From contig CAXFCR010000001.1 in assembly GCA_964001325.1 (NCBI GenBank), forward strand, positions 398 to 64,397: a stretch of DNA of 64,000 bases. Direction: 5' to 3'. Within the stretch, counting starts at the first letter, position 1; each line of letters starts with the position of its first letter. This document shows, piece by piece, positions 4,743 to 50,118 of the stretch. The position numbers were made by a program, and so were the translations under genes. The notes below the pieces were generated by a model. It had not been told where the DNA came from. It worked only from the letters and a program-made list of their open reading frames with translations, and did no database searches. This stretch comes from an uncultured Gammaproteobacteria bacterium (lineage in GTDB: Bacteria; Pseudomonadota; Gammaproteobacteria; Enterobacterales; UBA3532).

Positions 4743-5800
<1,058 letters not shown>

Positions 5801-5801
<1 letters not shown>

Positions 5802-6358: not shown

Positions 6359-6379
6359 CAAAAGTGGGGTTTAGCATCT

Positions 6380-7512: not shown

Positions 7513-7529
7513 CCAGGAGTATATTAGCA

Positions 7530-28862: not shown

Positions 28863-31463
28863 ATGTTGGGAAAAAATAAAGCGGTTAAGAAAAAAGAAAT
28901 AAAAGATAAGCAGCCCGATCAGGACGGGACACCAGCCAAGACTAAAGCCAAGAAGCCGCAGGCCAAGTCTAAAGAGGCGTCTTCCTTAATTAAGGTTCTT
29001 ACCATTCTCAGCATCAGTTTTCTGGTGTTGGCCGGATTTTGTTTTTACATGATCCAATTAAAGACGCCAGCTGAAGTCAACTTACGATTAGGTGAAAGTC
29101 AGGCCAGTGCATTACGTGACAGCGTATCGTTATTTTTATTGCAAGAAACGGAGAAGCTTGAAAGTGCTGGTAAGGCTGTCTATGCCTCAACCTCGGATGT
29201 GGAAAAATCTGCTGCAGTATTGCAGCAGATTTTTGCAGCAGCTGAAGGAGTTCGCATTATTGCGCGCGATCATAAAGAGACAATGACTGACGTTGTTCCT
29301 CCCATTACAAATATTATCCTGGCTAAATCTCGCCGAGTCATTGAGTCCAAAAGAGTGTTGCCCGAGGTGATTTCCCATCAAGGGAAAAAACTGTTTATTG
29401 TTGTGGCCAAAATATCTGAACAACATGCGGCTATAGCTGCTTTTCCCCTTAACTATGTTAAATCTGAGCTGGATAAGGTACTCCAAGTATCTGGAGCACT
29501 GGATGTCTATCAGGATTTTTCAGGCGTAGAAACGATTGCAGCGAGCCTCGGTAAAGGCAAAGGTTCTGCTGAACAGGGGGTTGTGGTAGCCATTAAAGAT
29601 TCGCCATGGAAAGTGCGGTACTGGTTGGAAAGCCGATTTAGCTTATTGCTAAGTGCCCTTTTTATTATCGGAGCGTTGGCTGGAACGGCGTTCATGCTCA
29701 TTCTTACTATTGCGGTTGCCGATAAACTTCAGCGCAAAACCGTTCGCGATGATGTTGAGGGTGTATTGAAGTTTATTGAAAAAGTCCTTGAAAATCCGAC
29801 CGCTGAAGTGCGCACCACAACAAAGTCACAGTTGTTTGAAGATCTTGCTCTGGGGTTGAGGCACATTATTCGAGATGCTTTTGTTAAAATGCGTGCAGAA
29901 ATGCAGCCTAAAGAAAAAATGAGCGATATGCCAATGCGGCGGCGTCGAGATTTAGAAGATGACATGGATGAAGATGAGGATGGCACCTCGGAGAAGACCA
30001 AGGATATTGTCGAAGATGTTTTTGCTTTTGATGAAGATGAGCCATCCGAACAGGAGAGTGAACCAACTCAGGCGCAGGGACCAGGTTTCTCGGTTCACCA
30101 ACAAATATTCCGTGCATATGATATTCGTGGAGTAGTCGATCAGGAAATTACAGAAGAAGACGCATACCAGATTGGCCGTGCCATCGGTACCGAGGCGCAA
30201 AACAGGGGACAACAGGGCGTTATAGTTGGTCGTGATGGGCGTCTATCTGGGCCTAAGTTGATGAACGCCGTCTCAGAAGGCATATTGGACAGTGGGGCGA
30301 ACGTCATAGATATTGGCGAAGTGCCGTCGCCAGTGTTGTATTTCGCGACGGAAAAACTTGCCTATCAGTCTGGAGTCATTGTTACCGGCAGTCATAACCC
30401 GCCAGAATATAACGGTTTCAAAGTGGTCATTGGGAATCAGGCGTTGTTTGGGCCGGAGATTGCCGACCTGCACCGTCGAATCGTTAATAACGAGATGTTG
30501 TCAGGGCGTGGAAGTAAGGAAGTTGTCGATAATATTGTTGAGCTTTATCTTGAGGAGATCACCAATGATGTGGCATTGGCTCAGGAGTTAAAGGTCGTTG
30601 TAGACTGTGGCAATGGTGTGGCAGGGCGTGTTGCACCAGATCTGCTAAAGGCTCTCGGCTGCGAAGTTGTGGAGTTGCATTGTGAGGTGGATGGTTCATT
30701 CCCGAATCACCATCCAGACCCTAGCAAGCCTGACAATTTAGATGATCTAATTCAAGCTGTTGCTCAGCACAAAGCGAGCATTGGTTTGGCCTTTGATGGC
30801 GATGGCGATCGCCTTGGGGTAGTGGACTCTTCGGGTAAAATCATTTGGCCTGATCGGCAAATGATGCTGTATGCCATGGACATGCTCTCTCGCAATCCTG
30901 GAGCTGATGTGGTTTTTGATGTTAAGTGTTCGCGGCATTTAAGTCAGGTAATTTCTGGTTGTGGTGGTCGTCCCGTAATGTGGAAGACCGGGCATTCATT
31001 AATCAAAGCCAAGATGCGTGAAACCGAGGCTTTATTGGGCGGAGAGTGCAGTGGCCATTTTTTCTTTAAAGAACGCTGGTTTGGTTTCGACGATGGAATA
31101 TACAGCGCAGCGCGCTTGCTAGAAATCTTGGCGGCAGACTTCCGTGATTCTGAGGATATATTTCAAGCGCTGCCAGAAGGTGTAGTAACGCCAGAAATGA
31201 CCATCGAAATCCCAGATGAGCGCAAATTCGACTACATGGAAAAGTTGGCGGTTGTGGCAGAGTTTGAAGGCGGTGAAGTTTCTACTGTCGATGGCATACG
31301 GGTTGATTTTGAAGAAGGTTGGGGATTGGTCAGGGCCTCGAATACTACGCCTGCACTGGTAGTCAGATTTGAGGGCGAGGATGAAGGACAGCTCGAACGC
31401 ATTAAGGCTATTTTCCGTGAAAAAATGCTTGAGGTGGATAGCTCGCTTGTTTTGCCCTTTTAG
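28863..31463 (+). CDS. algC: Phosphomannomutase/phosphoglucomutase (AlgC core, residues about 414-866) fused to a roughly 410-aa N-terminal two-TM module
   Basis: The core begins at IFRAYDIRG and contains the catalytic TGSHNPPEYNGFK, FDGDGDR and GECSGH motifs. The N-terminus has a Lys-rich tail, TM1 (res about 42-66), a roughly 190-aa loop, TM2 (about 259-285) and an acidic linker. Confidence 0.9.
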   Translation: MLGKNKAVKKKEIKDKQPDQDGTPAKTKAKKPQAKSKEASSLIKVLTILSISFLVLAGFCFYMIQLKTPAEVNLRLGESQASALRDSVSLFLLQETEKLESAGKAVYASTSDVEKSAAVLQQIFAAAEGVRIIARDHKETMTDVVPPITNIILAKSRRVIESKRVLPEVISHQGKKLFIVVAKISEQHAAIAAFPLNYVKSELDKVLQVSGALDVYQDFSGVETIAASLGKGKGSAEQGVVVAIKDSPWKVRYWLESRFSLLLSALFIIGALAGTAFMLILTIAVADKLQRKTVRDDVEGVLKFIEKVLENPTAEVRTTTKSQLFEDLALGLRHIIRDAFVKMRAEMQPKEKMSDMPMRRRRDLEDDMDEDEDGTSEKTKDIVEDVFAFDEDEPSEQESEPTQAQGPGFSVHQQIFRAYDIRGVVDQEITEEDAYQIGRAIGTEAQNRGQQGVIVGRDGRLSGPKLMNAVSEGILDSGANVIDIGEVPSPVLYFATEKLAYQSGVIVTGSHNPPEYNGFKVVIGNQALFGPEIADLHRRIVNNEMLSGRGSKEVVDNIVELYLEEITNDVALAQELKVVVDCGNGVAGRVAPDLLKALGCEVVELHCEVDGSFPNHHPDPSKPDNLDDLIQAVAQHKASIGLAFDGDGDRLGVVDSSGKIIWPDRQMMLYAMDMLSRNPGADVVFDVKCSRHLSQVISGCGGRPVMWKTGHSLIKAKMRETEALLGGECSGHFFFKERWFGFDDGIYSAARLLEILAADFRDSEDIFQALPEGVVTPEMTIEIPDERKFDYMEKLAVVAEFEGGEVSTVDGIRVDFEEGWGLVRASNTTPALVVRFEGEDEGQLERIKAIFREKMLEVDSSLVLPF

Positions 31464-32010: not shown

Positions 32011-32056
32011 ACAGACATAAAAAAAGAGAGGTTAACCTCTCTTTTTTTATGTCTGT
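32011..32056. terminator. Perfect 46-bp palindrome, a likely bidirectional terminator
   Basis: acagacataaaaaaagagagg ttaa cctctctttttttatgtctgt, with 21-bp arms and A/T runs on both sides of a GC-poor stem. Confidence 0.55.
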
Positions 32057-32674: not shown

Positions 32675-32968
32675 TTATTGCAGCACGGTTCTTGATTCTG
32701 TTTGCTGATAGCCGTCTGTTTGTTGATAACCGTCTGTTTGTTGATAACAAAGGTGGATTTGTCGCTTTGACTTTAAGGTATTGCACTGATTGCAAAAGTA
32801 ACTGACAGCGCCACAAGCCGCAAGCTTTTCCAGTGTTGCGCCACATTGATCGCAGCATGCCTTTTGTTCGATATAGCTATCGCAATGCTCGCAAAACAAA
32901 CCATCGGATTTATGCTGATGGCCACCGCGATGATTGCAAGGAGCTACAGTGTGAGATGGATTAAGCAT
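32675..32968 (-). CDS. yfgJ: YfgJ-family zinc-ribbon protein with a C-terminal (YQQTDG)x3 repeat tail
   Basis: CEHCDSY...KACCDQCGATLEKLAACGAVSYFCNQC parallels E. coli YfgJ (ALCPDCHQPLQVLKACGAVDYFCQ). Confidence 0.72.
   Translation of the reverse strand: MLNPSHTVAPCNHRGGHQHKSDGLFCEHCDSYIEQKACCDQCGATLEKLAACGAVSYFCNQCNTLKSKRQIHLCYQQTDGYQQTDGYQQTESRTVLQ
32698..32750. repeat. 18-bp tandem repeat x about 2.9 inside the yfgJ 3' end
   Basis: ctgtttgctgatagccgt / ctgtttgttgataaccgt / ctgtttgttgataac. Confidence 0.9.
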
Positions 32969-33069: not shown

Positions 33070-33228
33070 TTATTTTTTGGACTTTAATAAGCGGTAAGCA
33101 ATATAGACGGCTAAAGGCGCTGCTGCCACTATGCCTAAATCTTCGGCATGCCAATGAAGCCAAAGCTCGTCGTGCGCCAGTGCGGGAAATGAAGCGGTTG
33201 CTAAAAGTAAAGTAGCGTATTTTTTCAT
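33070..33228 (-). CDS. Candidate small exported or membrane peptide (52 aa) with a His-rich mature N-terminus; not in the ORF track
   Basis: Manual translation gives MKKYATLLLATASFPALA|HDELWLHWHAEDLGIVAAAPLAVYIAYRLLKSKK. This reads as a Sec-type signal with an AxA site, a HxxxxxHxH segment, one TM and a KSKK anchor. The start is 13 nt after the hydrogenase protease stop. Confidence 0.35.
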   Translation of the reverse strand: MKKYATLLLATASFPALAHDELWLHWHAEDLGIVAAAPLAVYIAYRLLKSKK

Positions 33229-33241
33229 TGTGGTTTACCTG

Positions 33242-33712
33242 TTAAGCACTACGAGGTCGGCGGTGGCGACTAAACCACCGCGAAACTTCGTGCTTGATTG
33301 CATTTAAAAGTTGAGATCGGTTGTAATACGGAATGCTGTCTTCAGTCTTCTCATTAATATCAATACCAAACAGCACCAGGTTGTCAGGCTTCATACTTAA
33401 CGTCGCTGCAAGGCGAATACCATCGCATACGCCAACGCCATGGGAAGACATGCGTGAGACGACTTCCGGAAGCTCCTCTTCGTTAAGACGAAGCACCGTT
33501 CCATAGGGAAAGTCGCCCTGTATCGCATCCACTAGAATAGCAAATGCGCAGTCGCTAATATGATTAGGAATATTGGCTGGCGTATCACACTTTTCCAGTG
33601 CGATACGTCCCGGCCATCGCTGAGCCAAGTTTCGAAGTTCATCAATACAGTCCCAGCCGAGGCGATCCGCACCGTGCGGAGACCCTATTCCTAAAATCAA
33701 TATTTCACTCAC
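33242..33712 (-). CDS. Hydrogenase maturation endopeptidase (HoxW/HycI family)
   Basis: 156 aa starting LILGIGSPHGADRLGW. The start overlaps the large-subunit stop by 8 nt. Confidence 0.85.
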   Translation of the reverse strand: MSEILILGIGSPHGADRLGWDCIDELRNLAQRWPGRIALEKCDTPANIPNHISDCAFAILVDAIQGDFPYGTVLRLNEEELPEVVSRMSSHGVGVCDGIRLAATLSMKPDNLVLFGIDINEKTEDSIPYYNRSQLLNAIKHEVSRWFSRHRRPRSA

Positions 33713-35018
33713 GATGCACCTTTAAGTCTAAAAAGTGGGTTGAGCAAGAAATGCACGGATCATAATTACGAATAATCATCTCGCAGTGCTTTCGTAGCTC
33801 ATCATCTTCGTGGTCCAGCCCCAGCCGTTCTACCGAGGTTTTTAGATTGTCCTCAATGCGCTGCTGGTTCTGACTAGTGGGAGGGATCATTGTCGCAGCT
33901 GCAACGCGGCCATCATCATTTATTTCGAAGCGATGATAGATCATTCCGCGAGGCGCTTCGGTACAGTGATGGCCAATGCCTGCCCTAGGTGTGTACTCAA
34001 CGAAAGGGCTTTTCGGCAACTGGTATTGTTTAAGAATACGTAACGATTCCCAGACTGAGTAGTAACACTCAATAGCCCGTGCTAGAACATTGTCGAACAT
34101 ATTTTTGCTTGGAAACTTCTTGTTGCAGTCGGCGACAAGCTCGCGAATTTCTTCAGGCAACTGGTGGAAGTTCAGGTTTACCCGTGCCAACGGACCAAGG
34201 AAATAGGACTTGCCATCAAGCAATGAGTAGTAAGCCGTAGAATGAGGAACCTGGTGTTCCCTGAAGTGAGCAGGATAGTCCTCAAAGGTCAGGTTCAATC
34301 CATGATCACTGATCAAACGGCCTTCGTTGATTCCGTATTCTTTTGGATGGTAAATAGCGACGCTGGCAAAGTCTTGTTCGTCTTCTGGCAGAGCGAGCTG
34401 AGCTGTCCATTCGACAAGACCTTTACAATCCTCCAGTGCAGCTTCTAGCTTATCAACCATTTCATTGATTTCGCTAATTGCGGGCGCACGATGGAAACCT
34501 CCTATTCGTAAGCCAATAGGGTGGACGGAGCGTCCGCCAAGCAGCTTGAGGAGATCGTTGCCTAGCCCTTGTAAGCGCATACCGCGTTTTACCGTTTCTG
34601 GATGGTGTTCTGCCATATTAATGGCATTGTCGAACCCTAAAAAGTCGGGCGTGGCAAGAAGGTGAATATGTAGCGCATGGCTCTGAAGCCATTCACCTGC
34701 ATACATGACTCGGCGCATATCATGCACCCAAGGGCCAGGATCAACTTGAAAAACTTTCTCAATCGCAATGGTTGAGGTCATCTGGTAGGCGATAGGGCAG
34801 ATTCCACATACGCGAGCAGCAATTGCCGAAACTTCGCTGTATTCTTGGCCTTCGAGAAACTTCTCGAATAATCGCGGTGGCTCGAATATTTTGAGGTGCA
34901 GTTGCTCGACTTTACCGTCTCGAGCTGTGAATTCTAATGCGCCTTCACCTTCCACCCTCACCATAACAGGGACATTGATATCGATGTCGCGATTTGGATC
35001 TGTGTTAGTCGTGGTCAT
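33705..35018 (-). CDS. [NiFe] hydrogenase large (alpha) subunit, group 3-type
   Basis: N-terminal RVCGICPIAY (RxCGxC) and C-terminal DPCISCSTH motifs, followed by a 9-aa tail (FLDLKVHRE). 437 aa. Confidence 0.92.
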   Translation of the reverse strand: MTTTNTDPNRDIDINVPVMVRVEGEGALEFTARDGKVEQLHLKIFEPPRLFEKFLEGQEYSEVSAIAARVCGICPIAYQMTSTIAIEKVFQVDPGPWVHDMRRVMYAGEWLQSHALHIHLLATPDFLGFDNAINMAEHHPETVKRGMRLQGLGNDLLKLLGGRSVHPIGLRIGGFHRAPAISEINEMVDKLEAALEDCKGLVEWTAQLALPEDEQDFASVAIYHPKEYGINEGRLISDHGLNLTFEDYPAHFREHQVPHSTAYYSLLDGKSYFLGPLARVNLNFHQLPEEIRELVADCNKKFPSKNMFDNVLARAIECYYSVWESLRILKQYQLPKSPFVEYTPRAGIGHHCTEAPRGMIYHRFEINDDGRVAAATMIPPTSQNQQRIEDNLKTSVERLGLDHEDDELRKHCEMIIRNYDPCISCSTHFLDLKVHRE

Positions 35019-35830
35019 GACTCGATTTCTCCTAGTTTAATGCGACGCTCATGTTTTTCATTCCAGATCTTGGTCGCATCACTAAAGACTGGGGCGGCAT
35101 TGTTAATAGATGCAAAGCGTCGGGCCACAGCGTCTGCGGCTAAACCAAAGCCTTCAAACCGGTTGCCGAGTGATGCTGTATTGGGATTTTCTGACGGGCC
35201 ATAACAGCTATAGCAAGGGGCACCGAAGGATGGGCATAATGCGCCACACCCGGTTCGGGTGACTGGTCCCATGCAAGCGGCTTGTTGTGTGACCAACACG
35301 CAAACGTTGTTCTTGCGTTTACAATCCTGGCAGACTTTTTCATTGGGATCGACAGGACGAACACCAAACAATAGGGAGCGCACAGCGGCCAGCATTTGTT
35401 TAACATCGACAGGGCAACCCCAAAGCTCGAAGTCAACTTTGACATGGTTCGCTATTGCGGCTGAAGTAGCCAAGGTTTCGATGTATTCCGGTTTGGCGTA
35501 GACTGACTGCATCCAGGCATCGGTATCGGCATTGTTTCTAAGTGCCTGGATTCCTCCTGTGGTAGCGCAGGCACCTACAGTAACCAGAAAGCGGCTATTT
35601 GCGCGAATGTCGTGGAGTCGATCGACATCTTCTGGCGTTGTTACACTGCCTTCGATAAATGCAATATCAACCCTGTCTTCTGGAGCCAGAGGGCCAGCTT
35701 CGACGAAGTGGACAATATCGACCAGCTCACTTAAAGTAATTAAATCTTCGCCCATATTAATAAAAGCGAGCTGGCAGCCCGAACACGAGGCGAATTTGTG
35801 AACGGCGATTCTCGGTTTTGAACGCGCCAT
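35015..35830 (-). CDS. [NiFe] hydrogenase small (delta) subunit, group 3-type
   Basis: The sequence starts MARSKPRIAVHKFASCSGCQ, continues with VGACATTGGI, and has C-terminal Cys clusters. There is no Tat signal. The likely start is 35830, inside the tracked ORF. Confidence 0.9.
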   Translation of the reverse strand: MARSKPRIAVHKFASCSGCQLAFINMGEDLITLSELVDIVHFVEAGPLAPEDRVDIAFIEGSVTTPEDVDRLHDIRANSRFLVTVGACATTGGIQALRNNADTDAWMQSVYAKPEYIETLATSAAIANHVKVDFELWGCPVDVKQMLAAVRSLLFGVRPVDPNEKVCQDCKRKNNVCVLVTQQAACMGPVTRTGCGALCPSFGAPCYSCYGPSENPNTASLGNRFEGFGLAADAVARRFASINNAAPVFSDATKIWNEKHERRIKLGEIES

Positions 35831-35831
35831 A

Positions 35832-36668
35832 TTAGAACCCCCTATGACGTAGTAGTTCTTCCACTTCCGGATATGAGAATACCGGACCATCTTTACATAC
35901 AAACTGGCTGCCAAATTGGCAATGGCCGCAATGGCCAACCGCGCATTGCATGTTTCTTTCCATGCTCAAATAGATGTTTTTGGGATCGACATTCAGGTCG
36001 ATCAATGTTCTAGCCGTTCCTGACATCATTGCGTCTGGGCCGCAAACCATGACTACACAGTTGTCTTTATCGTAGTCAGCTTTGTCGAATAGCACTGCGA
36101 CACGACCTAGCTCCCATTGGGGCCACTGGGTCTTTTCGCGACTGGCCGCCAACAGGATTTGGGTATTGGGTACCCGTCGCCACTCGTCATACTGTGGCTC
36201 CCACAGTACGTCGTGACGGTGTTTCACCGATTGCATGATAACCAGCTTGCCATATTCTTCACGCTTGCCAATGACGTAGCGAATAGAAGATACAACGGGA
36301 GCACAACCCAAGCCTGCAGTCACAAAGACGATGTCTTTGCCCTTGGCTTCATCAAGCGGCCAGCCGCGGCCAAAAGGTCCGCGCAGTCCCATCTTATCGC
36401 CTACTTGTAATCCCATCATGGCATTGGTAACACGACCGACTGCTCGGATAGTATGGACAAGCAGTTCGCCGTCATTTGACATGATTGAAATAGGAACTTC
36501 GCCTACACCATAGAGATAAAGCATATTGAACTGACCATGCTTGAAGGTGTAACTTTTCGCTATTTCGGGATCGGTGAATTTAATCTTAAAGGTATAGACG
36601 TCTGGCGTTTCCTGAACGCGTTCGACGATCTCTACTTCATGAGGAATGTAACAATTATTGGTTGTCAT
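35832..36668 (-). CDS. Hydrogenase gamma subunit: FAD/NAD(P)-binding oxidoreductase with C-terminal [2Fe-2S] (AsrB/HydG-like)
   Basis: An FNR-like fold with C-terminal CAVGHCGHCQ...C. The likely start ATG 36668 overlaps the beta gene by 14 nt. Confidence 0.85.
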   Translation of the reverse strand: MTTNNCYIPHEVEIVERVQETPDVYTFKIKFTDPEIAKSYTFKHGQFNMLYLYGVGEVPISIMSNDGELLVHTIRAVGRVTNAMMGLQVGDKMGLRGPFGRGWPLDEAKGKDIVFVTAGLGCAPVVSSIRYVIGKREEYGKLVIMQSVKHRHDVLWEPQYDEWRRVPNTQILLAASREKTQWPQWELGRVAVLFDKADYDKDNCVVMVCGPDAMMSGTARTLIDLNVDPKNIYLSMERNMQCAVGHCGHCQFGSQFVCKDGPVFSYPEVEELLRHRGF

Positions 36669-37818
36669 CGAGCAGCTCCGGTCCAACAATGCGAGTGGCT
36701 TCGCGTACAAAGTCGATTTGTGCCGGACACCAGGTGGTGCAGCGGCCGCATCCAACACACCCGATGCGGTCATATTGTTCGACCCAGGTGGCTAGCTTGT
36801 GTGTCATCCATTGGCGGTAGCGTAGTTTGGTATTTTCTCGCACCACTTCACCAACGATATAACTGTGATCCTGGTTAAAACAGGAATCCCATTCGCGATA
36901 GTGGCTGCTTGATTTCCCGTCGAGCTCCGGCTTTTCGACTTCTCGATGACAGAAGCAGGTTGGGCATACCGCAGTACAGTTGCCACAAGATAAACAACGC
37001 TCCGCAATCTCGTCCCAGATCGGATTATCCAACTGGGTCAATAATTTCGCATGTAAATCTTCATGTAAAAGCTTGGTTGACTGGCTGGCGGCCACGCTTT
37101 TTATCTGGCGTTCAGCTTCATCTAATTGCAAGCTGGATGCTTCGGTGGTGGCAAGGGTGTTCACGATGGTCGTGCCTTCATCGCTGCCAGCACGAATCAG
37201 AAAGCCTTCTTCGAGTTCGTCGAGAAGCAGGTCGTAGCCATCGAGAATTTCCGGTCCATCGCCCGTGGATTCGCAAAAGCAGGTATCGGCGCAATGGCTG
37301 CAATTCACGCCAACGAGAAATAACTTTTCCCGTCTTTCCGCATAGTACTCATCGCGATAAGTATTATGCAAAAAATGCTGATCCTGAATTTTAAGAGCCG
37401 CAATATCGCAGGCCCTTACACCAATAATGGCCGTTAACGGCGCATTGGGTTCGCCGGGTTTAAACACAAACCCGTTGTCGGTTTCAGAAACCTGCCAAAG
37501 CGTTTCTGTTGATGCATAAACATAGGGTTTGATGGCGCTATGTCCATTGGCCCAGCTAAAATTTCTTACGCCACCGGTGTGGGATAGCTGATAGCTACCG
37601 GGGGCTTGCTTTTCTTGAACACCAACGGGCAATTCGTCAAAGGAGCCAAGTTCAGTATAGGTTATTGCGCCGAGATCGACCTTGGGGCCGACAACGCGAT
37701 AACCCTTATTCGACAGCGTGTCATACAGCTGTGACAAGGATGAACGTGGCAAGAAGTGAGTGGCTGGCACTGGATACCTCCGTGAGTATGTGAGCAGTTT
37801 TCTCAGTACAGGATACAT
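36655..37818 (-). CDS. Hydrogenase beta subunit: 4Fe-4S dicluster protein (AsrA/HydB-like)
   Basis: The CLSCGNCTAVCPTCFC and CVGCGRCTTWCP motifs, 387 aa. It is the first gene of a beta-gamma-delta-alpha operon. Confidence 0.85.
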   Translation of the reverse strand: MYPVLRKLLTYSRRYPVPATHFLPRSSLSQLYDTLSNKGYRVVGPKVDLGAITYTELGSFDELPVGVQEKQAPGSYQLSHTGGVRNFSWANGHSAIKPYVYASTETLWQVSETDNGFVFKPGEPNAPLTAIIGVRACDIAALKIQDQHFLHNTYRDEYYAERREKLFLVGVNCSHCADTCFCESTGDGPEILDGYDLLLDELEEGFLIRAGSDEGTTIVNTLATTEASSLQLDEAERQIKSVAASQSTKLLHEDLHAKLLTQLDNPIWDEIAERCLSCGNCTAVCPTCFCHREVEKPELDGKSSSHYREWDSCFNQDHSYIVGEVVRENTKLRYRQWMTHKLATWVEQYDRIGCVGCGRCTTWCPAQIDFVREATRIVGPELLDDNQ

Positions 37819-37899
37819 TTTGGCTGAAACTTAGGTGTTAATTGATTGAGCAAGATCAAGTTTTCTTAGAATATTCCGACTAAAGTTGTGGTTATTCTG

Positions 37900-37913
37900 T
37901 TGATATTTGTCAA
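37900..37913. promoter_or_regulatory. Candidate FNR/CRP-family box TTGATatttGTCAA in the hydrogenase/hyp divergent region
   Basis: A 9/10 match to TTGAT-N4-ATCAA, centred about 88 nt upstream of the beta-subunit ATG and 12 nt upstream of the hypC ATG. Confidence 0.25.
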
Positions 37914-37924
37914 ACGAGGTTTTT

Positions 37925-38176
37925 ATGTGTTTGGGCATACCCATGCAAATTGAGTCGTTGGAAGAAAATGGGGTGGCAAAGTGCCATGCTGACGGCGTGA
38001 GGCGAGAGGTAAGTATTTCATTACTTGGAGAAAATTCGGTTGAGGTTGGTGACTTTGTGATGGTACATGTAGGCTACGCCATTCAAAAAGTATCGCCAGT
38101 GTTTGCTCGTTCGGCCTGGGAGACCACGGCCAAAATGCAGGCAGCAGGCGAGACTGATCAAATATCGGAAGTGTAG
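37925..38176 (+). CDS. hypC: Hydrogenase maturation chaperone HypC/HupF
   Basis: MCLGIPMQI N-terminus with the essential Cys2. The tracked start 37907 is too early. Confidence 0.9.
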   Translation: MCLGIPMQIESLEENGVAKCHADGVRREVSISLLGENSVEVGDFVMVHVGYAIQKVSPVFARSAWETTAKMQAAGETDQISEV

Positions 38177-38178
38177 TT

Positions 38179-38544
38179 ATGCATGAGCTATCCGTATGTC
38201 GTCAATTAGTTCAACAATTGACCCAATTGGCTCAAAAGCATCAAGCCACCAAGATCACGCTGGTAGAGCTATCCGTCGGGGCATTGTCGGGCATCGAACC
38301 TGATTTGTTAAAAATGGCCTTTCCTATGGCAGTCAAAGGTAGTGTTGCGGAAGACGCGACACTCAGCATTGTCTGTCAGCCCGTAACCGTAAAGTGTCGC
38401 GACTGCCACAAGGAGTCTGAAGTAGCGACTAATCAACTGACTTGTCCGCATTGTGCCAGCCATCAAACCCAGCTGACTGGCGGAGATGCGATGTTACTAA
38501 CCCGCTTTTCGATGCGGCAGGAAGAGGAGAATCATTGTGTGTGA
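38179..38544 (+). CDS. hypA: Hydrogenase nickel-insertion protein HypA
   Basis: MHELS N-terminus and a CxxC...CxxC zinc site (CRDCH...CPHCAS). Confidence 0.9.
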   Translation: MHELSVCRQLVQQLTQLAQKHQATKITLVELSVGALSGIEPDLLKMAFPMAVKGSVAEDATLSIVCQPVTVKCRDCHKESEVATNQLTCPHCASHQTQLTGGDAMLLTRFSMRQEEENHCV

Positions 38545-39298
38545 TAACTGTGGTTGCAATATTACTCATGGCAACGAGCATTTGTTGGGTGAAGGAGGAA
38601 AGCTCCATCAGGTTCATGGAGAGCTATCCGTTGAAGTACTGGAAAACCTGTTACATGAAAATGATCACCAGGCCAGCCACAACCGCGAGCATTTTGAAAA
38701 GCACAGGGTGCTGGCTATCAATCTCATGTCTTCGCCAGGGTCAGGAAAAACAACATTATTGCAAAAGGCTTTGCCTGTTTTAGGCAAAAAGTACCGTGTT
38801 GCAGTGGTTGAAGGCGATCTGGAAACAGAAAACGATGCCCAGCGGCTTCGCGATGCGGGCGTTGAGGCCATTCAAATCACTACCGGCAGTGCTTGTCATC
38901 TGGATTCGCATATGGTGCACGATGCACTTCACAAACTGAACCTGGCCGAGCTGGATATCGTTTTCATAGAAAATGTAGGTAACCTCGTTTGCCCAGCCAG
39001 TTTTGATTTGGGGCATCACTTGAATGTTGTCATGCTATCGGTTACGGAAGGGGATGATAAACCATCAAAGTATCCGGTTATGTTTCGCGCTGCCGATTTG
39101 ATGTTAATCACCAAAACCGACTTGTTGCCATATTTGGATGACTTTAGTTGCGAGCGTGCTGAAATGGCCATGAGTCAACTAGCTAAACCCATTGAAATTA
39201 TACAAGTATCGGCGCGCAATGAAGAGAGTTATGCGCCTTGGATTGCTTGGATTGAGCAGCAATGGAAAACACGTTATGAGGTAGCTCAGAGCGCATGA
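38537..39298 (+). CDS. hypB: Hydrogenase nickel-incorporation GTPase HypB
   Basis: N-terminal CDNCGC (CxxCGC) site and a G1 motif SSPGSGKTT. 253 aa. Confidence 0.93.
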   Translation: MCDNCGCNITHGNEHLLGEGGKLHQVHGELSVEVLENLLHENDHQASHNREHFEKHRVLAINLMSSPGSGKTTLLQKALPVLGKKYRVAVVEGDLETENDAQRLRDAGVEAIQITTGSACHLDSHMVHDALHKLNLAELDIVFIENVGNLVCPASFDLGHHLNVVMLSVTEGDDKPSKYPVMFRAADLMLITKTDLLPYLDDFSCERAEMAMSQLAKPIEIIQVSARNEESYAPWIAWIEQQWKTRYEVAQSA

Positions 39299-40389
39299 AA
39301 AATATTACCGAAGCAAAAAAATGGATGCACAAGATCAAAGAGTTGGATCTTCCCGATACGCCCATTCGCATCATGAATGTTTGTGGCGGGCATGAGCGTT
39401 CGATTACCCATGCTGGCTTGCGGGGCGTTTTGCCTGAACAGGTGGAGTTAGTTCCTGGTCCCGGATGTCCTGTCTGTGTCTGTCCAGAAGAAGATGTTTA
39501 TGCGGCTATCCAGGTTAGCTTAAATCACGACGTAACGCTGGTCGCTTTTGGCGATATGCTCCGAGTGCCGGTCAATGTACCAAGGTCGCAGGCTCGTTCG
39601 CTGGAGGAAGCCAAAGCCAAAGGTGCGGATATTCGGCCCATCGCCTCACCGATGGAAGCTGTTGCCATCGCTGATGCCAACCCTAATCGAACAGTGGTTT
39701 TTTTCGCGGCTGGTTTTGAAACGACTATGGCTCCAGTGGCCGCAATGCTTGCCTTCGAAGAGCGTCCAAATCTAAAAGTTTTGATCAGCGGTCGTCTCAC
39801 ATGGCCTGCAGTTGCCTTATTGCTCGACAGTGATTCACCAGGATTTGATTGCCTGGTTGCTCCTGGGCATGTTGCGACAGTCATGGGCGGTGATGAATGG
39901 CGCTTCGTTGCCGAAAAACACAAGCTGCCAGCAGCTGTTGCCGGTTTTGAGCCAGATAGCTTGTTAGCCGCCTTTTATTCGACATTACGGCAGTTTACTG
40001 AAGGCTCAGCTTTCCTTGATAATTGCTATCAGGAGTTGGTCACCGATGAGGGAAATCAGCCAGCTCAAAGTATTATGCAACGCGTATTTAAGGTAACCGA
40101 CGCCAATTGGCGAGGAATTGGTATCATTCCTCAGTCGGGTTTTGAGCTCGCTGAAGCTTATCAACACCTGGATGCTCGAAATGACTATCCCGCCTATCAT
40201 GAAGAAGCGCGTCAAAAAGCCGGTGAAAACCCTCCAGGCTGCGACTGTGCCCAGGTGGTTCTAGCCAAGATCCGTCCGAATGAATGCCGGTTGTATGGTA
40301 AAGCATGCACGCCAAGAACACCCTATGGGCCTTGTATGGTCTCCGATGAGGGAGCCTGTCGGATCTGGTGGGCTGGCGGACTAAGATAA
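39295..40389 (+). CDS. hypD: Hydrogenase Fe(CN)2CO assembly protein HypD
   Basis: The GPGCPVCV motif and C-terminal Cys cluster, 364 aa. Confidence 0.95.
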   Translation: MKNITEAKKWMHKIKELDLPDTPIRIMNVCGGHERSITHAGLRGVLPEQVELVPGPGCPVCVCPEEDVYAAIQVSLNHDVTLVAFGDMLRVPVNVPRSQARSLEEAKAKGADIRPIASPMEAVAIADANPNRTVVFFAAGFETTMAPVAAMLAFEERPNLKVLISGRLTWPAVALLLDSDSPGFDCLVAPGHVATVMGGDEWRFVAEKHKLPAAVAGFEPDSLLAAFYSTLRQFTEGSAFLDNCYQELVTDEGNQPAQSIMQRVFKVTDANWRGIGIIPQSGFELAEAYQHLDARNDYPAYHEEARQKAGENPPGCDCAQVVLAKIRPNECRLYGKACTPRTPYGPCMVSDEGACRIWWAGGLR

Positions 40390-40394
40390 GCGCT

Positions 40395-42686
40395 ATGTCC
40401 AGTAGTATCCATGCACGAACTCTCACTGTTAGCGGTAAGGTGCAAGGCGTCGGTTTTCGTCCGTTTGTCTATCAGCTTTCGACGCAGCTGGGCCTAACTG
40501 GCTGGGTTGAAAATCGCTGTGGTGAGGTGGCGATTTGGTGGGAGGGTATTGAAGCATCGTTGGATGCTGCTATAGGTAGGCTGATCACGGAGGCTCCACC
40601 TTTAGCTCAGCCTGTGATCAGTCAAATAGATACCGCCACATCTGTAGGCTTTGCTCGTTTTGAAATTAGAGCGAGTTGTCAGTCTGAGCATGTCGATATT
40701 CATTTGCCTGCAGATTTTTTTATGTGCCCAAAGTGCCAAGCTGAGTTAACAGAAAAGGGCAATCGGCGTCATGAATATCCTTTTATCAACTGCACCCACT
40801 GTGGGCCACGCTATACCATTATTGAGGCGTTGCCTTATGATCGTCCCTCCACGACGATGGCTGGCTTTCCATTGTGTGAGGCTTGTGCAAGCGAGTACAG
40901 CAATCCCGGTGACCGGCGATTTCATGCTCAGCCGATAGCCTGTCCAGATTGCGGGCCTCAACTTGAATATATCGAGAAACAACAAAAAATCACCGAAAAT
41001 ACAGAAGCAATTGCTGCGACGGTTAGTGCGTTGCGACGTGGCTGCATCATTGCCGTAAAGGGCATAGGTGGCTATCACTTGTTGGCTGATGCTTTAAACG
41101 ATGAAGCCATTGCCAGGTTGCGTGCTCGAAAACAGCGTCCCGATAAACCCTTTGCGGTTATGTTTCCTTGGTTGGGAGGTGATGGCACCGAAGACATTCA
41201 ACGCTATACAACTCCAAGCTCACGAGAATTGGCATTACTGTGCAGCCATGAGCGGCCAATTGTGTTGGTGGAGGCGGGGCAAGAACAACGGGCACAAGCG
41301 CTTAGCCGTCGAGTATCGGGTGCGTTGGGGCGAATCGGTGTCATGCTGCCTTACAGCCCTTTACATTTTCTATTGCTGCGTTCCTTTAATGGGCCATTGG
41401 TGGCGACGTCAGGCAATATCAGTGGCGAACCCGTAATTATTGATAATAGGATGGCGGAGCAACGATTGGCACGTTTTGCCGATGCTATGCTGCATCACAA
41501 CCGACCTATCGTGCGTCCCGCGGATGATAGCGTTGTTCAAGTTATTGCTAACCGGCAGGCTCCTATCCGGCTCGGACGAGGGACGGCTCCTTTGGAAGGG
41601 CGACTGCCTTTTACTTTGGATGAGCCGGTTGTCGCCTTTGGAGCGCAGCAGAAAAACACCTTATGCCTGGCTTGGAGAGATCGGTTTGTTCTGTCGCCAC
41701 ACATTGGTGATATGGGAGCTCGTCGTAGCTTGGAGGTATTGCAGGGTGTTTGTGATGACCTAAGCCGGCTTTATCAAGTGAAGCCGAAACAGTGCTTAAT
41801 CGATCATCATCCAAGCTATAGCTACCGGCGTATTGCCGAGCGCAATGATTGGCAAGTTCATAAAGTGTGGCACCACCATGCTCACGCCAGCGCTCTGTGT
41901 GCGGAGCATTGCGCTGATGATTGGCTGATTTTTTCTTGGGATGGCGTTGGTTTTGGGCCGGATAAAACCCTATGGGGTGGTGAGGCTTTTACTGGGCAGC
42001 CCGGTAATTGGGCGCGCATAGCGACGATTCAGCCATTTCGTCTACCTGGCGGTGACAAAGTGTTTAACGAGCCATGGCGCGTGGCGGCAGCGCTACTGTG
42101 GGAGGCCGGAATCGAAGAGCCTCGTGCATTGCCGGAGCAGGCGGTCTTGTTAGAGCGGGCATGGGCCAATCAGATACAATCGCCCCAAACCAGCTCGATA
42201 GGGCGGCTATTTGACGGTGTGGCATGGCTACTAGGTATTGTTGATGATACCTCCTTTGACGGCCAAGCTCCGATGCTGCTGCAACGCCATGCAGAGGCTT
42301 TTGCTTCAAAAGCGACACCGGCTGATTGGGATAGAGCCAATAGCATGGCTGAAAGTTCAATAACGCGGAAAGATGAATTCATGAAATTGAATTGGTCTGA
42401 TTGGCTAGCTGAACTCTGTTATGGAGAACGAAGTGTCAACGAGCGGGCCTGGTATTTTCATGCCTTGTTGGTGGAATATATCCTGATTGTTGCTCACAGC
42501 CAAAGTGTGCTTAAACCCGCTATTGGCTTGACAGGTGGGGTGTTTCAGAACCGGCTTTTAGTCAATATGTTTAGCCATCGCGCCAAGCAATATCGGTTTG
42601 ATTGGTATACCGGCCGTCAATATCCAGTGAATGATGGTGCGCTAAGTCTTGGTCAGGTACTGGAGTGGGGCGCGATGCGTACTTGA
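40395..42686 (+). CDS. hypF: Carbamoyltransferase HypF
   Basis: An acylphosphatase domain (VSGKVQGVGFRPF), two Zn-finger pairs (CPKC..., CTHCGPRY, CEAC, CPDCGP), and YrdC-like and Kae1-like domains. Confidence 0.95.
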   Translation: MSSSIHARTLTVSGKVQGVGFRPFVYQLSTQLGLTGWVENRCGEVAIWWEGIEASLDAAIGRLITEAPPLAQPVISQIDTATSVGFARFEIRASCQSEHVDIHLPADFFMCPKCQAELTEKGNRRHEYPFINCTHCGPRYTIIEALPYDRPSTTMAGFPLCEACASEYSNPGDRRFHAQPIACPDCGPQLEYIEKQQKITENTEAIAATVSALRRGCIIAVKGIGGYHLLADALNDEAIARLRARKQRPDKPFAVMFPWLGGDGTEDIQRYTTPSSRELALLCSHERPIVLVEAGQEQRAQALSRRVSGALGRIGVMLPYSPLHFLLLRSFNGPLVATSGNISGEPVIIDNRMAEQRLARFADAMLHHNRPIVRPADDSVVQVIANRQAPIRLGRGTAPLEGRLPFTLDEPVVAFGAQQKNTLCLAWRDRFVLSPHIGDMGARRSLEVLQGVCDDLSRLYQVKPKQCLIDHHPSYSYRRIAERNDWQVHKVWHHHAHASALCAEHCADDWLIFSWDGVGFGPDKTLWGGEAFTGQPGNWARIATIQPFRLPGGDKVFNEPWRVAAALLWEAGIEEPRALPEQAVLLERAWANQIQSPQTSSIGRLFDGVAWLLGIVDDTSFDGQAPMLLQRHAEAFASKATPADWDRANSMAESSITRKDEFMKLNWSDWLAELCYGERSVNERAWYFHALLVEYILIVAHSQSVLKPAIGLTGGVFQNRLLVNMFSHRAKQYRFDWYTGRQYPVNDGALSLGQVLEWGAMRT

Positions 42687-42738
42687 GCAAACAATACCTA
42701 CTTGAACTAACAATACCTACTTGAACTAACAATAGATG
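42681..42738. repeat. 19-20 bp tandem repeat x3 starting at the hypF stop codon
   Basis: tacttgagcaaacaatacc / tacttgaactaacaatacc / tacttgaactaacaatag. Confidence 0.85.
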
Positions 42739-42781
42739 AAAGAACTTGTCCTAAAAAATAATTGATATAGAGGAATACCCA

Positions 42782-43786
42782 ATGCAGGATAAATATATTC
42801 GGTTGGCTCATGGCAACGGTGGTCGGTTGATGCGCGAGCTGATTGATAGCTTGATAAGTCCTTACCTACCCAAAGATCTGGATACAACGCTGGACGCATC
42901 GCCCGTGCCAGTGCGCAGCGGTATGGAAATGCTGATGTCTACCGACAGTTTTACAGTACAGCCGCTTTTCTTTCCCGGAGGTAATATTGGTCACTTAGCC
43001 GTGCATGGCACGGTAAACGATTTGGCCGTTAGTGGTGCTGAACCGTCCCATCTGACATTGAATCTGGTCCTGGAAGAAGGCTTGGCTGCTTCTGAATTAG
43101 AGATTGTTATGGCGGGTTTTGCTGAAGCGGCTAATGCGGCTGGTGTTAAAGTCTGTGCCGGTGATACCAAAGTGGTGCCTAAGGGGCAGGGCAGTGGTAT
43201 TTATATGGTGACTACTGGCATAGGTTGGAAGTCTCCAGAGCTTGAGCTGTCGATGCATTGCATTCAGGCTGGGGACAAGATCGTTGTTAGTGGCTCGGTT
43301 GGCGATCATGGGATTGCGGTAATGATGGCGCGGGAGCAATTCGGACTTAGTGGTGACGTTAAGTCGGACGCCGCCTGCGTCTTGCCCTTTACACGTGTCG
43401 GGCGCGATATTTCTGGCGTGCGTTTTATGCGCGATCCAACCAGAGGTGGGGTTGCTACCGTTTTACATGAACTACAAATAACCACTGAGCTGGGTATAGA
43501 AATAGATGAGTCTGCGGTGCCAGTAAAGCCTGCGGTGCGTTCGGTTTGTGATCTGTTAGGCTATGATCCATATTATTTAGCGTGCGAAGGTCGAGTTGTC
43601 GCCGTAGTTGCTGCTGAGCACGCTGAGGCGTTGGTTGCCCAGTGGCGAGCTCTACCTGACGGTCAGGAAGCTGCGATTATAGGAGAGTTTGTTGCGGCGC
43701 AGGATGGGGTTTGGTTAAACACTCCACTAGGTGGCCAACGCTACCTGGAGCAGTTGGAAGACGAGCCCTTGCCAAGGATTTGTTAG
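42782..43786 (+). CDS. hypE: Hydrogenase maturation protein HypE
   Basis: A PurM-like fold, 334 aa, ending in the PRIC motif. Confidence 0.95.
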   Translation: MQDKYIRLAHGNGGRLMRELIDSLISPYLPKDLDTTLDASPVPVRSGMEMLMSTDSFTVQPLFFPGGNIGHLAVHGTVNDLAVSGAEPSHLTLNLVLEEGLAASELEIVMAGFAEAANAAGVKVCAGDTKVVPKGQGSGIYMVTTGIGWKSPELELSMHCIQAGDKIVVSGSVGDHGIAVMMAREQFGLSGDVKSDAACVLPFTRVGRDISGVRFMRDPTRGGVATVLHELQITTELGIEIDESAVPVKPAVRSVCDLLGYDPYYLACEGRVVAVVAAEHAEALVAQWRALPDGQEAAIIGEFVAAQDGVWLNTPLGGQRYLEQLEDEPLPRIC

Positions 43787-44013
43787 TAGAAACCTGCGTC
43801 GGATCAAATCTTGGTGCAGTTATTATTGAGATAAGCCGAACTTATAATATACAATACTGTCATAATCAGTGGTTATCATTGACTTGCTTGGATAGTTAAA
43901 GTTGAGCGATAGATAACCACTAATCAGAAGAAAATCAGCTCTTATCCGTGTAGGTAAAGCGTTAGCTACTAAATATTGTCTATAATATAAGCAATTGTTG
44001 GCACTTTGTCGCA

Positions 44014-45025: not shown

Positions 45026-45487
45026 TCAAGAGTGATTGGCTGCTTGCTCTGTAATCTCAACACTGGGTAGCAGGCGCTGCATTAAAAAATCAGGCTTTTT
45101 CAAAAAATCCGCTAGCGTATATTCGTTTAATACCGCCATAAATGCGCGTGTCGCTTTATTCAGCACCCCAAATAGCTGGCAGCTTCCCGCAATTGGGCAG
45201 GCAACTTGCTCACAGTCTATAGGACAAAGTGTCGTTTCAAAGTCTGTTACGACTTGACCAATGACAATAGACTCGGCGGGCTTCCCAAGCATTACGCCAC
45301 CATTTTTACCGCGCACCGTATCTAAATAACCTAACGAGCCCAGCTTGTGTACCACTTTGATTAAATGGTTGTGAGACATATTAAACTGACGCCCGATTTC
45401 GGTCACCGAGACTCGCTCGCCTTCCGGCTGCAATCCAACATATAGCAGGGTGCGGAGGGCGAAATCGGTATGTCTGGTCAGTTGCAT
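45026..45487 (-). CDS. nsrR: Rrf2-family NO-sensing repressor NsrR
   Basis: MQLTRHTDFALRTLLY...VRGKNGG..LGKPA..I.IG.VV closely parallels E. coli NsrR. A Cys cluster (CPIDCEQVACPIAGSC) is present. Confidence 0.85.
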   Translation of the reverse strand: MQLTRHTDFALRTLLYVGLQPEGERVSVTEIGRQFNMSHNHLIKVVHKLGSLGYLDTVRGKNGGVMLGKPAESIVIGQVVTDFETTLCPIDCEQVACPIAGSCQLFGVLNKATRAFMAVLNEYTLADFLKKPDFLMQRLLPSVEITEQAANHS

Positions 45488-45502
45488 ATAATTGCCTGTT
45501 GC

Positions 45503-46471
45503 TTAGGGTGCCGAATGAACAAATACGTCCGCATGTATACGTTGGAAACTGGCGCCATTTAAAAATAATTGCTTGCGTAGTTTCTCTATTATATCCGGCG
45601 CGCCACAAAGGTAAATATGTGACTGCTTCAATGGCAACGGCTGATCGAGCACAAGTTGATCCAGAGCAAGCGTTTGGACGCCATCGGGCTGATCATCGCT
45701 CGGTTTTAATACTGAGAAGTGCAATTGAAGTTGTGGGTGCTTAGAGGAAAGCGCTTTTAGTTCGTTAATATAATACAGCGTATCTGTGTTATAGGCACCG
45801 ATAAACGCATGCATCTCTCCTTGATGTTCATGGGCAATGGCATCTTGGATAATGCCGTAAAGTGGCGCTAATCCAGTTCCTGTGCCAATAAATACGAGGG
45901 GGCATTCGACATCATCAACGCCATAGCAGCACTCACCCATTGGCCCTTGAATGCGCAGAGTGTCACCAACGGTCAGCTTATGCGCCCAATCACTAAAAGC
46001 GCCGTCTGGAATATGTTTGATATGAAATTCGATTTCTTTGTCATCATTGGGAGGATTGGCAATAGAGTAGCTTCGACCAGTTTCGCCATCGCGCCACAGA
46101 GTCACATACTGGCCAGCAATAAAGTCCATATCAGCCCGAACCTTTAATCGATAGACTTGCTTGGCCAGCCAGGTAATGTCTGTGATGGTTGCTTCGCTGG
46201 TTATTTGTGACTGATCAGGCAGGACTACCGTCATATCTTCCGTTGGTAAACAGGAGCATGCTAGAAACATATTCTGGCGCTTTTGGGCTGGTTTCAATCC
46301 GTTTTGTGCTGCCTGTGGTGGGGTGCCTTCCTGACAAATCATCATGCATGAGTGGCACACACCCGAACGACAGCTGTGTGGTATCCGGTGTCCGGCATCG
46401 AGCAGGGTATCCAATAACGGAGCATCTGGAGTCGCGTCAATGGTTTCAGACTGATACGTTACAACTGGCAT
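45503..46471 (-). CDS. 2Fe-2S ferredoxin + FNR-like FAD/NAD(P)H oxidoreductase (322 aa)
   Basis: An N-terminal CRSGVCHSC...C plant-type Fd motif, the RSYSIAN flavin motif, GPMG, and the GTGTGLAPL NAD(P)-binding motif. Confidence 0.85.
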   Translation of the reverse strand: MPVVTYQSETIDATPDAPLLDTLLDAGHRIPHSCRSGVCHSCMMICQEGTPPQAAQNGLKPAQKRQNMFLACSCLPTEDMTVVLPDQSQITSEATITDITWLAKQVYRLKVRADMDFIAGQYVTLWRDGETGRSYSIANPPNDDKEIEFHIKHIPDGAFSDWAHKLTVGDTLRIQGPMGECCYGVDDVECPLVFIGTGTGLAPLYGIIQDAIAHEHQGEMHAFIGAYNTDTLYYINELKALSSKHPQLQLHFSVLKPSDDQPDGVQTLALDQLVLDQPLPLKQSHIYLCGAPDIIEKLRKQLFLNGASFQRIHADVFVHSAP

Positions 46472-46510
46472 GTGGTCTCCTAAACTTGAAGAGCTGAAGG
46501 TGGAGGTGGA

Positions 46511-46592
46511 AGCTATAGCCGAGTTGTGCTCGGCTATAGCTTTACTATCTTTGTCGTGAGAATGTACCGACTTTGTCGTGAGGATGTACCGA
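46511..46592. repeat. Perfect 13-bp-stem hairpin plus a 22-bp direct repeat x2 between glbN and the reductase gene
   Basis: agctatagccgag ttgtg ctcggctatagct (46511-46541); ctttgtcgtgagaatgtaccga / ctttgtcgtgaggatgtaccga (46549-46592). Confidence 0.85.
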
Positions 46593-46603
46593 TTCGCCAG
46601 AAC

Positions 46604-46960
46604 TTAGCGGTTTAGCACATCGTCGCGAACGCTATTGGCTATCCCGGCAATCTCTGCAATATCTGCCTCGGCAACGCCCAGTTCCTGCAAGGTGGCACCT
46701 AGGTTTTCAATAACGGCGTCGAGGTGGACATCGTTGAGTTTCATATGTTTATGGCCTTCACGCAAGTCTTTGCCACTGTATTTATTTGGCCCGCCGAAAA
46801 CCATTGTGAGGAAAGCCTTTTGCTTTTGGGCTTGCGCAGCCATGTCAACGCCATCAAAAAACTCGCTGATACGGTCGTCCGAAAGGATCTTGCGGTAGAA
46901 AATGTCAACGGCAGCGTCTACGGCTTTCTCGCCACCAATTCGTTCATAGAGTGTGCTCAT
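46604..46960 (-). CDS. glbN: Group I truncated (2-on-2) haemoglobin, GlbN/trHbN type
   Basis: STLYERIGGEKAVDAAVDIFYRKILSDDRISEFF...KQKAFLT..FGGP..Y.G closely parallels cyanobacterial GlbN. 118 aa. Confidence 0.92.
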   Translation of the reverse strand: MSTLYERIGGEKAVDAAVDIFYRKILSDDRISEFFDGVDMAAQAQKQKAFLTMVFGGPNKYSGKDLREGHKHMKLNDVHLDAVIENLGATLQELGVAEADIAEIAGIANSVRDDVLNR

Positions 46961-49955: not shown

Positions 49956-50118
49956 TTTTTTGAGCGCTATAGCAAGCCAGTATTTTGTATTCATATTTGC
50001 ACAGCTAAACTCAAAAAAAGCTGGAGGCTGGGGCGAAAACTGGTAGAATACTGAACTAATTTTTGGCGGCTGAATTAGTGATCGGTCGCCATTCATCAAC
50101 TATAGTAGGAGTACGACT

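Follow-up and report, generated by a model that had tools for sequence, protein, structure and literature searches.

A candidate group 3b [NiFe]-hydrogenase cassette with its own maturation genes in a marine Kangiellaceae genome

Known group 3b systems and the present locus

Among the [NiFe]-hydrogenases, group 3b is described in HydDB as a widespread fermentative class (PMC5037454). Its described members include the archaeal enzymes Pyrococcus furiosus soluble hydrogenase I (SHI; HydBGDA, PDB 9nez and 9e15) and Thermococcus kodakarensis Hyh (5yxy), as well as Mycobacterium smegmatis Hyh (Hyd3), a hypoxia-induced, H2-evolving enzyme that disposes of reductant in an obligate aerobe (10.1101/2023.09.11.557286). 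A locus of this type is described here from a 64,000-nucleotide stretch of DNA (the window) of contig CAXFCR010000001.1 (assembly GCA_964001325.1, positions 398 to 64,397), the uncultured host of which belongs to the family Kangiellaceae (Tara Oceans metagenome-assembled genome, MAG). Eleven intact genes, delimited by a listing of open reading frames (ORFs) and by profile searches, span 33242-43786 as a 10.5-kb unit. In all likelihood, to judge from the sequence, they specify a functional cytoplasmic heterotetrameric group 3b enzyme with its own endopeptidase and HypCABDFE maturation proteins, working most likely as a low-oxygen redox valve and encoded by a cassette that the lineage probably gained, and not recently.

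The predicted enzyme resembles those of Pyrococcus and Thermococcus in its four subunits, the beta-gamma-delta-alpha gene order, the NiFe motifs, and the cytoplasmic location; it differs from them in an alpha subunit of about 31% identity, in its mesophilic marine bacterial host, and in having its own protease and hyp genes within the cassette. With M. smegmatis Hyh and the actinobacterial 3b enzymes it shares a host that is aerobic at the family level and the beta-gamma-delta-alpha-protease order, whereas actinobacterial Hyh is regulated by DosR and the present locus carries FNR-like boxes. The hypoxic redox-valve role proposed below is the same as that of M. smegmatis Hyh (10.1101/2023.09.11.557286). 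The copy on the Rhodococcus qingshengii plasmid RQCS_2 has an alpha subunit 43% identical to the one described here, and the R. qingshengii locus L093 (NZ_AP023173.1 233586-250875) differs in having a cyclic nucleotide (cNMP)-binding gene between beta and gamma and no adjacent hyp set. The flanks of L093, which hold ppsA, a triacylglycerol (TAG) synthase and universal stress proteins, give it the look of a portable hypoxia-survival module.

Closest of all are the marine gammaproteobacterial 3b enzymes of Teredinibacter haidensis, T. purpureus, Reinekea marinisedimentorum, and Alteromonadaceae Bs31, with alpha subunits 65-73% identical. Two such loci, L090 and L091, have an identical 11-gene divergent architecture in different flanks; relative to these marine relatives, the lineage-specific features of the window are the host family, a 19-nt x 3 tandem repeat, and a trailing 52-aa ORF. 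Group 3b clusters with adjacent hyp genes in other arrangements are known from N. oceani AFC132, Marinobacter, and Luminiphilus (PMC7285500). Tara Oceans metagenomes as well as metatranscriptomes have served to quantify 3b genes, and a published tree holds group 3 and 4 hydrogenase sequences from Tara MAGs (PMC10305171). A literature search for Kangiellaceae together with hydrogenase found no paper; the public record of the identical alpha protein is already titled "Ni/Fe hydrogenase subunit alpha". The cassette type is known and annotated, the new elements being the host family Kangiellaceae and minor lineage-specific features only, and knowledge of hydrogenases and their maturation is unchanged. 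What the locus adds is one more family, Kangiellaceae, to the many nominally aerobic marine bacteria with a cytoplasmic NAD(P)-linked hydrogenase, and this is useful when Tara Oceans MAGs are annotated for metabolism or H2 cycling in the sea is modelled.

Subunits, class assignment and maturation genes

The structural genes and the hyp genes diverge from a common intergenic region (coordinates are those of the window):

33242-33712, minus strand: maturation endopeptidase of the HycI/HybD family, 156 aa (PF01750, 30.6 bits; TIGR00072, 47.5 bits, at its cutoff)
33705-35018, minus strand: alpha, large catalytic [NiFe] subunit, 437 aa (PF00374, 85 bits)
35015-35830, minus strand: delta, small subunit, 271 aa (PF01058; HydD, 167 bits; PDB 9nez_A, 151.5 bits)
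35832-36668, minus strand: gamma, AsrB/PyrK-like FAD/NAD(P)-binding subunit, 278 aa (PF00175 and PF10418; NF006220, 221 bits; HydG, 195 bits; 9nez_C, 186 bits)
36655-37770, minus strand: beta, AsrA-like poly-ferredoxin subunit, 371 aa from GTG (PF17179, 104 bits; HydB, 170 bits; 9nez_B, 153 bits)
37771-37924, no strand: divergent hyh/hyp promoter region, 154 nt, with two FNR-like boxes
37925-38176, plus strand: hypC, 83 aa, N-terminus MCLGIP (PF01455, 80 bits)
38179-38544, plus strand: hypA, 121 aa, N-terminus MHE, with a CxxC...CxxC zinc site (PF01155, 108 bits)
38537-39298, plus strand: hypB, 253 aa, GTPase domain (PF02492, 83 bits)
39295-40389, plus strand: hypD, 364 aa (PF01924, 425 bits)
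40368-42686, plus strand: hypF, 772 aa from GTG (PF00708, PF07503, PF01300, PF17788, PF22521)
42782-43786, plus strand: hypE, 334 aa, C-terminus PRIC (PF00586 and PF02769)

A preliminary description of the window, made from its letters alone, had proposed a minus-strand beta-gamma-delta-alpha-endopeptidase operon and a divergent plus-strand hypC-A-B-D-F-E set, and both proposals hold: all five genes of the former are intact and belong to the expected Pfam and NCBIfam families, and all six of the latter are intact and score above the Pfam cutoffs. The overlaps of 4-14 nt that it gave for the structural genes are essentially right for beta/gamma (14 nt), delta/alpha (4 nt), and alpha/protease (8 nt), gamma and delta being separated by a 1-nt gap instead. 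Its left edge, at 33070, has to be moved, since that position belongs to a 52-aa orphan ORF outside the conserved cassette, which starts at 33242. Three genes are over-long when taken as longest ORFs; the boundaries of beta, gamma, delta, and hypC were set by public gene calls on identical sequence together with conserved N-termini. For beta, an alternative ATG at 37818 would give 387 aa, against 371 aa in the public call, and for hypF the public call starts at ATG 40395 and gives 763 aa. The N-terminus of delta reads MARSKPRIAVHKF, with the public call starting at MARSKP.

The alpha subunit carries both NiFe-ligand motifs that had been noted as RxCGxC and DPCxxCxxH, in the form RVCGIC (residues 69-74) and DPCISCSTH (residues 420-428), so that Cys71, Cys74, Cys422, and Cys425 are the predicted metal ligands, and a 9-residue tail, FLDLKVHRE, follows His428. 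As likewise proposed, delta has no twin-arginine (Tat) signal, no RRxF motif being found in its first 40 residues, and its 12 Cys residues would be enough for three 4Fe-4S clusters. Gamma, with a 2Fe-2S site at its C-terminus, has 8 Cys residues, among them a C-terminal cluster, and beta has 16, with CxxCxxCxxxCP occurring twice. A periplasmic uptake hydrogenase was rejected, since delta lacks a Tat signal.

Assignment of the predicted enzyme to group 3b, as in the preliminary description, is supported, because subunit composition and nearest characterised relatives agree. Compared with all PDB chains, alpha matches T. kodakarensis 5yxy (221 bits) and P. furiosus SHI 9nez_D (215 bits) best, and by group the scores are 212-221 bits for 3b, 129-151 for 3c (Mvh 151), 117 for 3d (Hox), at most 114 for 3a (Frh), and at most 84 for groups 1 and 2. 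The best PDB match of beta, gamma, and delta is in each case the corresponding 9nez chain (153, 186 and 151.5 bits). NCBIfam models rank alpha in the same way (ShyA 264 and HydA 238 bits, against 115 for both VhuA and FrhA), and the top models are HydD/ShyD for delta and HydB/ShyB for beta, with HydG only second best for gamma. All structural subunits score far below the NCBIfam equivalog cutoffs and are not orthologous equivalogs, as is expected for distant bacterial homologues. The diaphorase module consists of an AsrA-like Fe-S protein (beta) and an AsrB-like protein with FAD, NAD(P), and 2Fe-2S sites (gamma) rather than of FrhB, MvhD/Hdr, or HoxEFU, and groups 3a, 3c, and 3d were rejected on account of the wrong partner subunits and the lower scores.

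Two points weigh against the assignment: the identity of alpha to the archaeal 3b large subunits (about 31%) is little above that to the 3c protein MvhA (28%), and the class is read from profile and bit scores and from subunit composition rather than from a full reference phylogeny, the neighbour-joining tree having been built with references reconstructed from PDB alignments (two 3b and one 3c) and used for identities and for the near-neighbour clade.

The composition of the module also bears on what the enzyme reduces. Beta and gamma are AsrA/AsrB-like, and a sulfhydrogenase activity, in which NAD(P)H or H2 serves to reduce elemental sulfur or polysulfide to H2S, is a side activity of the Pyrococcus homologues that has been cited for marine 3b enzymes (PMC7285500). 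That this would be the chief function here is very improbable, as the window has no genes of sulfur metabolism alongside the cassette. Even for Pyrococcus, to our knowledge, the reduction of sulfur is not taken to be the physiological role.

The predicted [NiFe] maturation set is complete, comprising HypA, B, C, D, E, and F as well as the endopeptidase, and the key motifs that were checked are intact. All Hyp Pfam families are found far above their cutoffs; HypB, which has 15 His in all, carries an N-terminal CDNCGC nickel site and is His-rich towards its N-terminus, and all five domains of HypF are present. Every ORF of 120 aa or more in the window was scanned, and none is a nickel transporter, in agreement with the preliminary description, which had stated that no nickel permease is present there. 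An Rfam scan gave no riboswitch, NiCo or other, near the locus, the sole match in the window being an S15 leader. Three smaller features adjoin the genes:

42675-42734, no strand: 19-nt x 3 tandem repeat at the hypF stop, from a repeat search
43794-43819, plus strand: terminator-like hairpin closing the hyp operon
33070-33228, minus strand: 52-aa orphan ORF without a Pfam match

The tandem repeat copies the last codons and the stop of hypF, its unit occurring nowhere else in the window, and it widens the spacer between hypF and hypE to 95 nt, where L090 and L091 have 14-25 nt. The 52-aa ORF sits 13 nt downstream of the protease gene; its product begins in the manner of a signal peptide, followed by HDELWLHWH and a single hydrophobic helix. 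It has no relative but itself among 5.8 billion proteins and was not found in the cassettes of L090, L091, and L092; its membership of the operon is uncertain.

The divergent promoter and the physiological role

The intergenic region between beta and hypC contains two FNR-like boxes, TTGAGCAAGATCAA at 37846-37859 and TTGATATTTGTCAA at 37900-37913, each with one mismatch to TTGAT-N4-ATCAA. Sites with at most one mismatch occur seven times in the 64 kb, where 3.9 are expected, and two of the seven lie within these 154 nt, so that chance placement of both in one intergenic region is unlikely. A similar box, TTGATATAGCTCAA, is present 95 nt upstream of beta in L090, the nearest of the full cassettes. 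Box 1 lies about 34 nt upstream of the beta ATG at 37818, and a role as a class II (-41.5) site would put the transcription start beyond this ATG, in keeping with the downstream GTG chosen for beta by the gene callers. The boxes hint at low-oxygen induction of the operon. On the other side, both are imperfect, and L091 and L092 have no FNR-like box.

From the gene set, it can be proposed that HypC, HypD, HypE, and HypF would assemble the Fe(CN)2CO unit, that HypA and HypB would insert nickel, and that the endopeptidase would cut the 9-residue tail of alpha after His428. By homology to SHI, H2 would be split or formed at the NiFe site of Cys71, Cys74, Cys422, and Cys425, with electrons passing in either direction between this site, the three delta clusters, the beta 4Fe-4S clusters, the 2Fe-2S cluster and FAD of gamma, and NAD(P)+/NAD(P)H. 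Under low oxygen, for example in particles or in oxygen-poor water, surplus NAD(P)H could be vented as H2, and the reverse reaction, from H2 to NAD(P)H, may take place when H2 is available.

The most likely physiological role on this analysis is that of a low-oxygen redox valve, because of the behaviour of M. smegmatis Hyh and the FNR-like boxes. Members of the Kangiellaceae are considered strictly aerobic open-ocean bacteria. The description of the host as aerobic rests on this known biology of the family and is not readable from the window.

The direction of the reaction is the point at which a second account has to be weighed, in which the same enzyme would mainly take up ambient or local H2 and oxidise it to supply NAD(P)H. 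In its favour, catalysis by group 3b enzymes runs both ways, NAD(P)+-dependent reversible oxidation of H2 has been proposed for marine Nitrospina and for N. oceani AFC132 (PMC7285500), and seawater holds H2 that is consumed by marine bacteria (PMC10305171). However, in hypoxia H2 is evolved by M. smegmatis Hyh, the sole bacterial 3b enzyme to have been tested genetically (10.1101/2023.09.11.557286), 3b is grouped with the fermentation-linked hydrogenases in the supplement of PMC10305171, the FNR-like boxes fit low-oxygen induction, and neither an uptake hydrogenase nor RuBisCO is seen in the window. A mainly uptake function is therefore possible though doubtful.

A more elaborate version of the redox-valve role is unlikely: the lineage might have captured an FNR-controlled, H2-evolving 3b cassette, and the 52-aa His-rich membrane peptide might serve as a lineage-specific nickel-handling accessory. 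If this were true, H2 fermentation could take place in sinking particles or in oxygen-minimum water, and heterotrophs of this kind would be an overlooked pelagic source of H2.

Distribution, origin and flanking DNA

The locus and its flanks recur in two JGI samples, one of them represented by a 66.7-kb contig, and also in an ENA Tara contig and in NCBI GCA_002707725.1. The whole cassette is contained in JGI contigs of 66.7 kb and 21 kb, one of which has both housekeeping flanks, and the left-flank junction is reproduced by one ENA and one NCBI contig. With the junctions between hydrogenase and housekeeping genes alike in at least three independent assemblies, the linkage is not an assembly chimera. 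An artefact of assembly or binning, or a decaying relic of a cassette, might be suspected from the end of the NCBI MAG contig PANT01000034 within the beta gene and from the odd tandem repeat at the hypF stop; against the recurrence of cassette and junction just described, the homogeneous codon usage, the full length of all ORFs (11/11), and the intact state of the catalytic and maturation motifs that were checked, either is extremely improbable.

By sequence comparison, the cassette is found again in several orders of the Gammaproteobacteria, each time among other neighbouring genes. The same 11 genes are collinear in L090 and L091 (Teredinibacter haidensis-type contig), with identities falling from 70-73% for alpha to 26-31% for the protease, and the flanks of these copies share none of the flanking genes of the window; in Reinekea, only hypC is kept beside the structural genes. 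The best alpha matches come from Teredinibacter, Reinekea, Alteromonadaceae, Legionella, a tubeworm symbiont, and a Chloroflexota MAG, the closest homologues belonging to other gammaproteobacterial orders, and no named Kangiella, Pleionea, or Aliikangiella is among the 120 best matches. The Chloroflexota protein is about as near (58%) as that of Legionella (57%). Alpha homologues of 41-46% identity occur on plasmid records of Burkholderia, Rhodococcus, Pandoraea, and others, and the one Rhodococcus locus that was opened contains the beta-gamma-delta-alpha-protease set.

Relatives of the host were sought through pgm, which lies to the left of the cassette. A search of genome contigs with pgm gave no close sister, the best match being 56% identical over the C-terminal half only. 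In a protein search with pgm, Pleionea is the sole Kangiellaceae name among the top matches. The three nearest relatives found by the latter search (L085, L086 and L088) are distant, 44-49% identical over most of pgm; their gene order is coaBC(-dut)-pgm-slmA, radC is close by, and no hydrogenase lies within 10 kb of pgm. The preliminary description had held that universal conservation and vertical inheritance of the locus in the lineage would speak against its proposal, and such conservation is not seen in these three of three relatives, although their distance makes the comparison at the pgm site suggestive, not decisive.

From this distribution, the cassette was probably gained by the lineage, not recently but long enough ago for full amelioration. 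Several observations weigh against gain. The GC content of the cassette (0.496) is not atypical for the window (0.469, standard deviation 0.025), its synonymous-codon distance of 1.95 falls within the range of equal-sized control blocks (1.5-3.0), no tRNA gene and, among the annotated flank genes, no integrase or transposase was found, and there are no flanking direct (att-like) repeats beyond chance 14-19-mers. Because codon usage is usual and neither integrase nor tRNA nor flanking repeat is present, any acquisition would be old. The claim of the preliminary description that the cassette is acquired finds support in the patchy distribution and the differing contexts elsewhere, with no sign of it in composition, codon usage, or mobility signatures; acquisition rests only on the former two and is plausible but unproven.

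The same observations can be read as vertical descent from an early gammaproteobacterial ancestor, with many losses elsewhere. Codon usage and GC content equal to those of the flanks, the lack of integrase, tRNA, and flanking repeat, and the fact that the nearest relatives of alpha are all marine Gammaproteobacteria are as this account would have them. It accords less well with the unrelated context of the cassette in each genome, with the lack of a cassette next to pgm in L085, L086, and L088, all of which keep the pgm-slmA synteny, with the missing named Kangiellaceae genera among the best alpha matches, and with a Chloroflexota protein as near as that of Legionella and homologues that are plasmid-borne. 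An ancestral cassette is accordingly somewhat unlikely, and an old gain remains the preferred reading.

As the preliminary description had it, the cassette lies between housekeeping genes in a pilus-bearing bacterium. The remaining window is an ordinary gammaproteobacterial core, with thrE, mdh, mrcA, pilMNOPQ, aroKB, gltBD, hemE, mutM, rpmBG, and radC, and further coaBC, dut, pgm, csp, folE, pnp, panBC, folK, dksA, and leuA; the type IV pilus genes pilMNOPQ are at 4746-9752. Among the small orphan genes that were said to bound the cassette, those on the left take in a cold-shock gene of the ordinary kind (PF00313) as well as one for a Zn_ribbon_6 protein (PF07191). The bounding DNA, described as AT-rich and repeat-containing, is indeed lower in GC at 31-33 kb (43%, against about 47% for the window), with repeats that are short local tandem repeats and a terminator palindrome rather than those of a mobile element. 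The palindrome, at 32011-32056 between the cold-shock gene and a convergent 107-aa ORF, is a perfect one of 46 bp with 23-nt arms and no spacer, and is most likely a bidirectional terminator. The Zn_ribbon_6 protein (32675-32968, minus strand) is a Cys/His-rich double zinc-ribbon protein, the C-terminus of which contains QQTDGY units encoded by an 18-nt x 3 repeat in frame.

To the right, 1.2 kb from hypE, an apparent operon at 45026-46960 (minus strand) resembles a module for nitric oxide (NO) or oxygen stress. It encodes a truncated haemoglobin (46604-46960, minus strand; PF01152), a 2Fe-2S/FAD/NAD ferredoxin reductase (45503-46471, minus strand), and an NsrR-like Rrf2 regulator (45026-45487, minus strand), with a 22-nt x 2 tandem repeat at 46549-46592 between globin and reductase.

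Some further features of the housekeeping genes were noted. The phosphomannomutase/phosphoglucomutase encoded at 28863-31463 has 866 aa, with an N-terminal extension of about 400 aa that is common to many gammaproteobacterial homologues, and slmA, which directly follows pgm in L085, L086, and L088, is found neither at that place nor elsewhere in the 64-kb window. The poly(A) polymerase gene pcnB looks split (54966-56182, minus strand): a 258-aa ORF at 54966-55742 has the RNA-binding and Arg-rich C-terminal domains only, and a 110-aa ORF at 55850-56182 occupies the expected place of the catalytic head, which may reflect a frameshift, a pseudogene, or a sequencing error. Two ORFs of the HPPK family are present, at 47791-48336 and 54466-54969, one being a full folK beside panB and the other a weaker, partial-profile copy beside folE. 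The S15 leader found by the Rfam scan (RF00114, 82 bits) lies at 50062-50175, upstream of rpsO-pnp.

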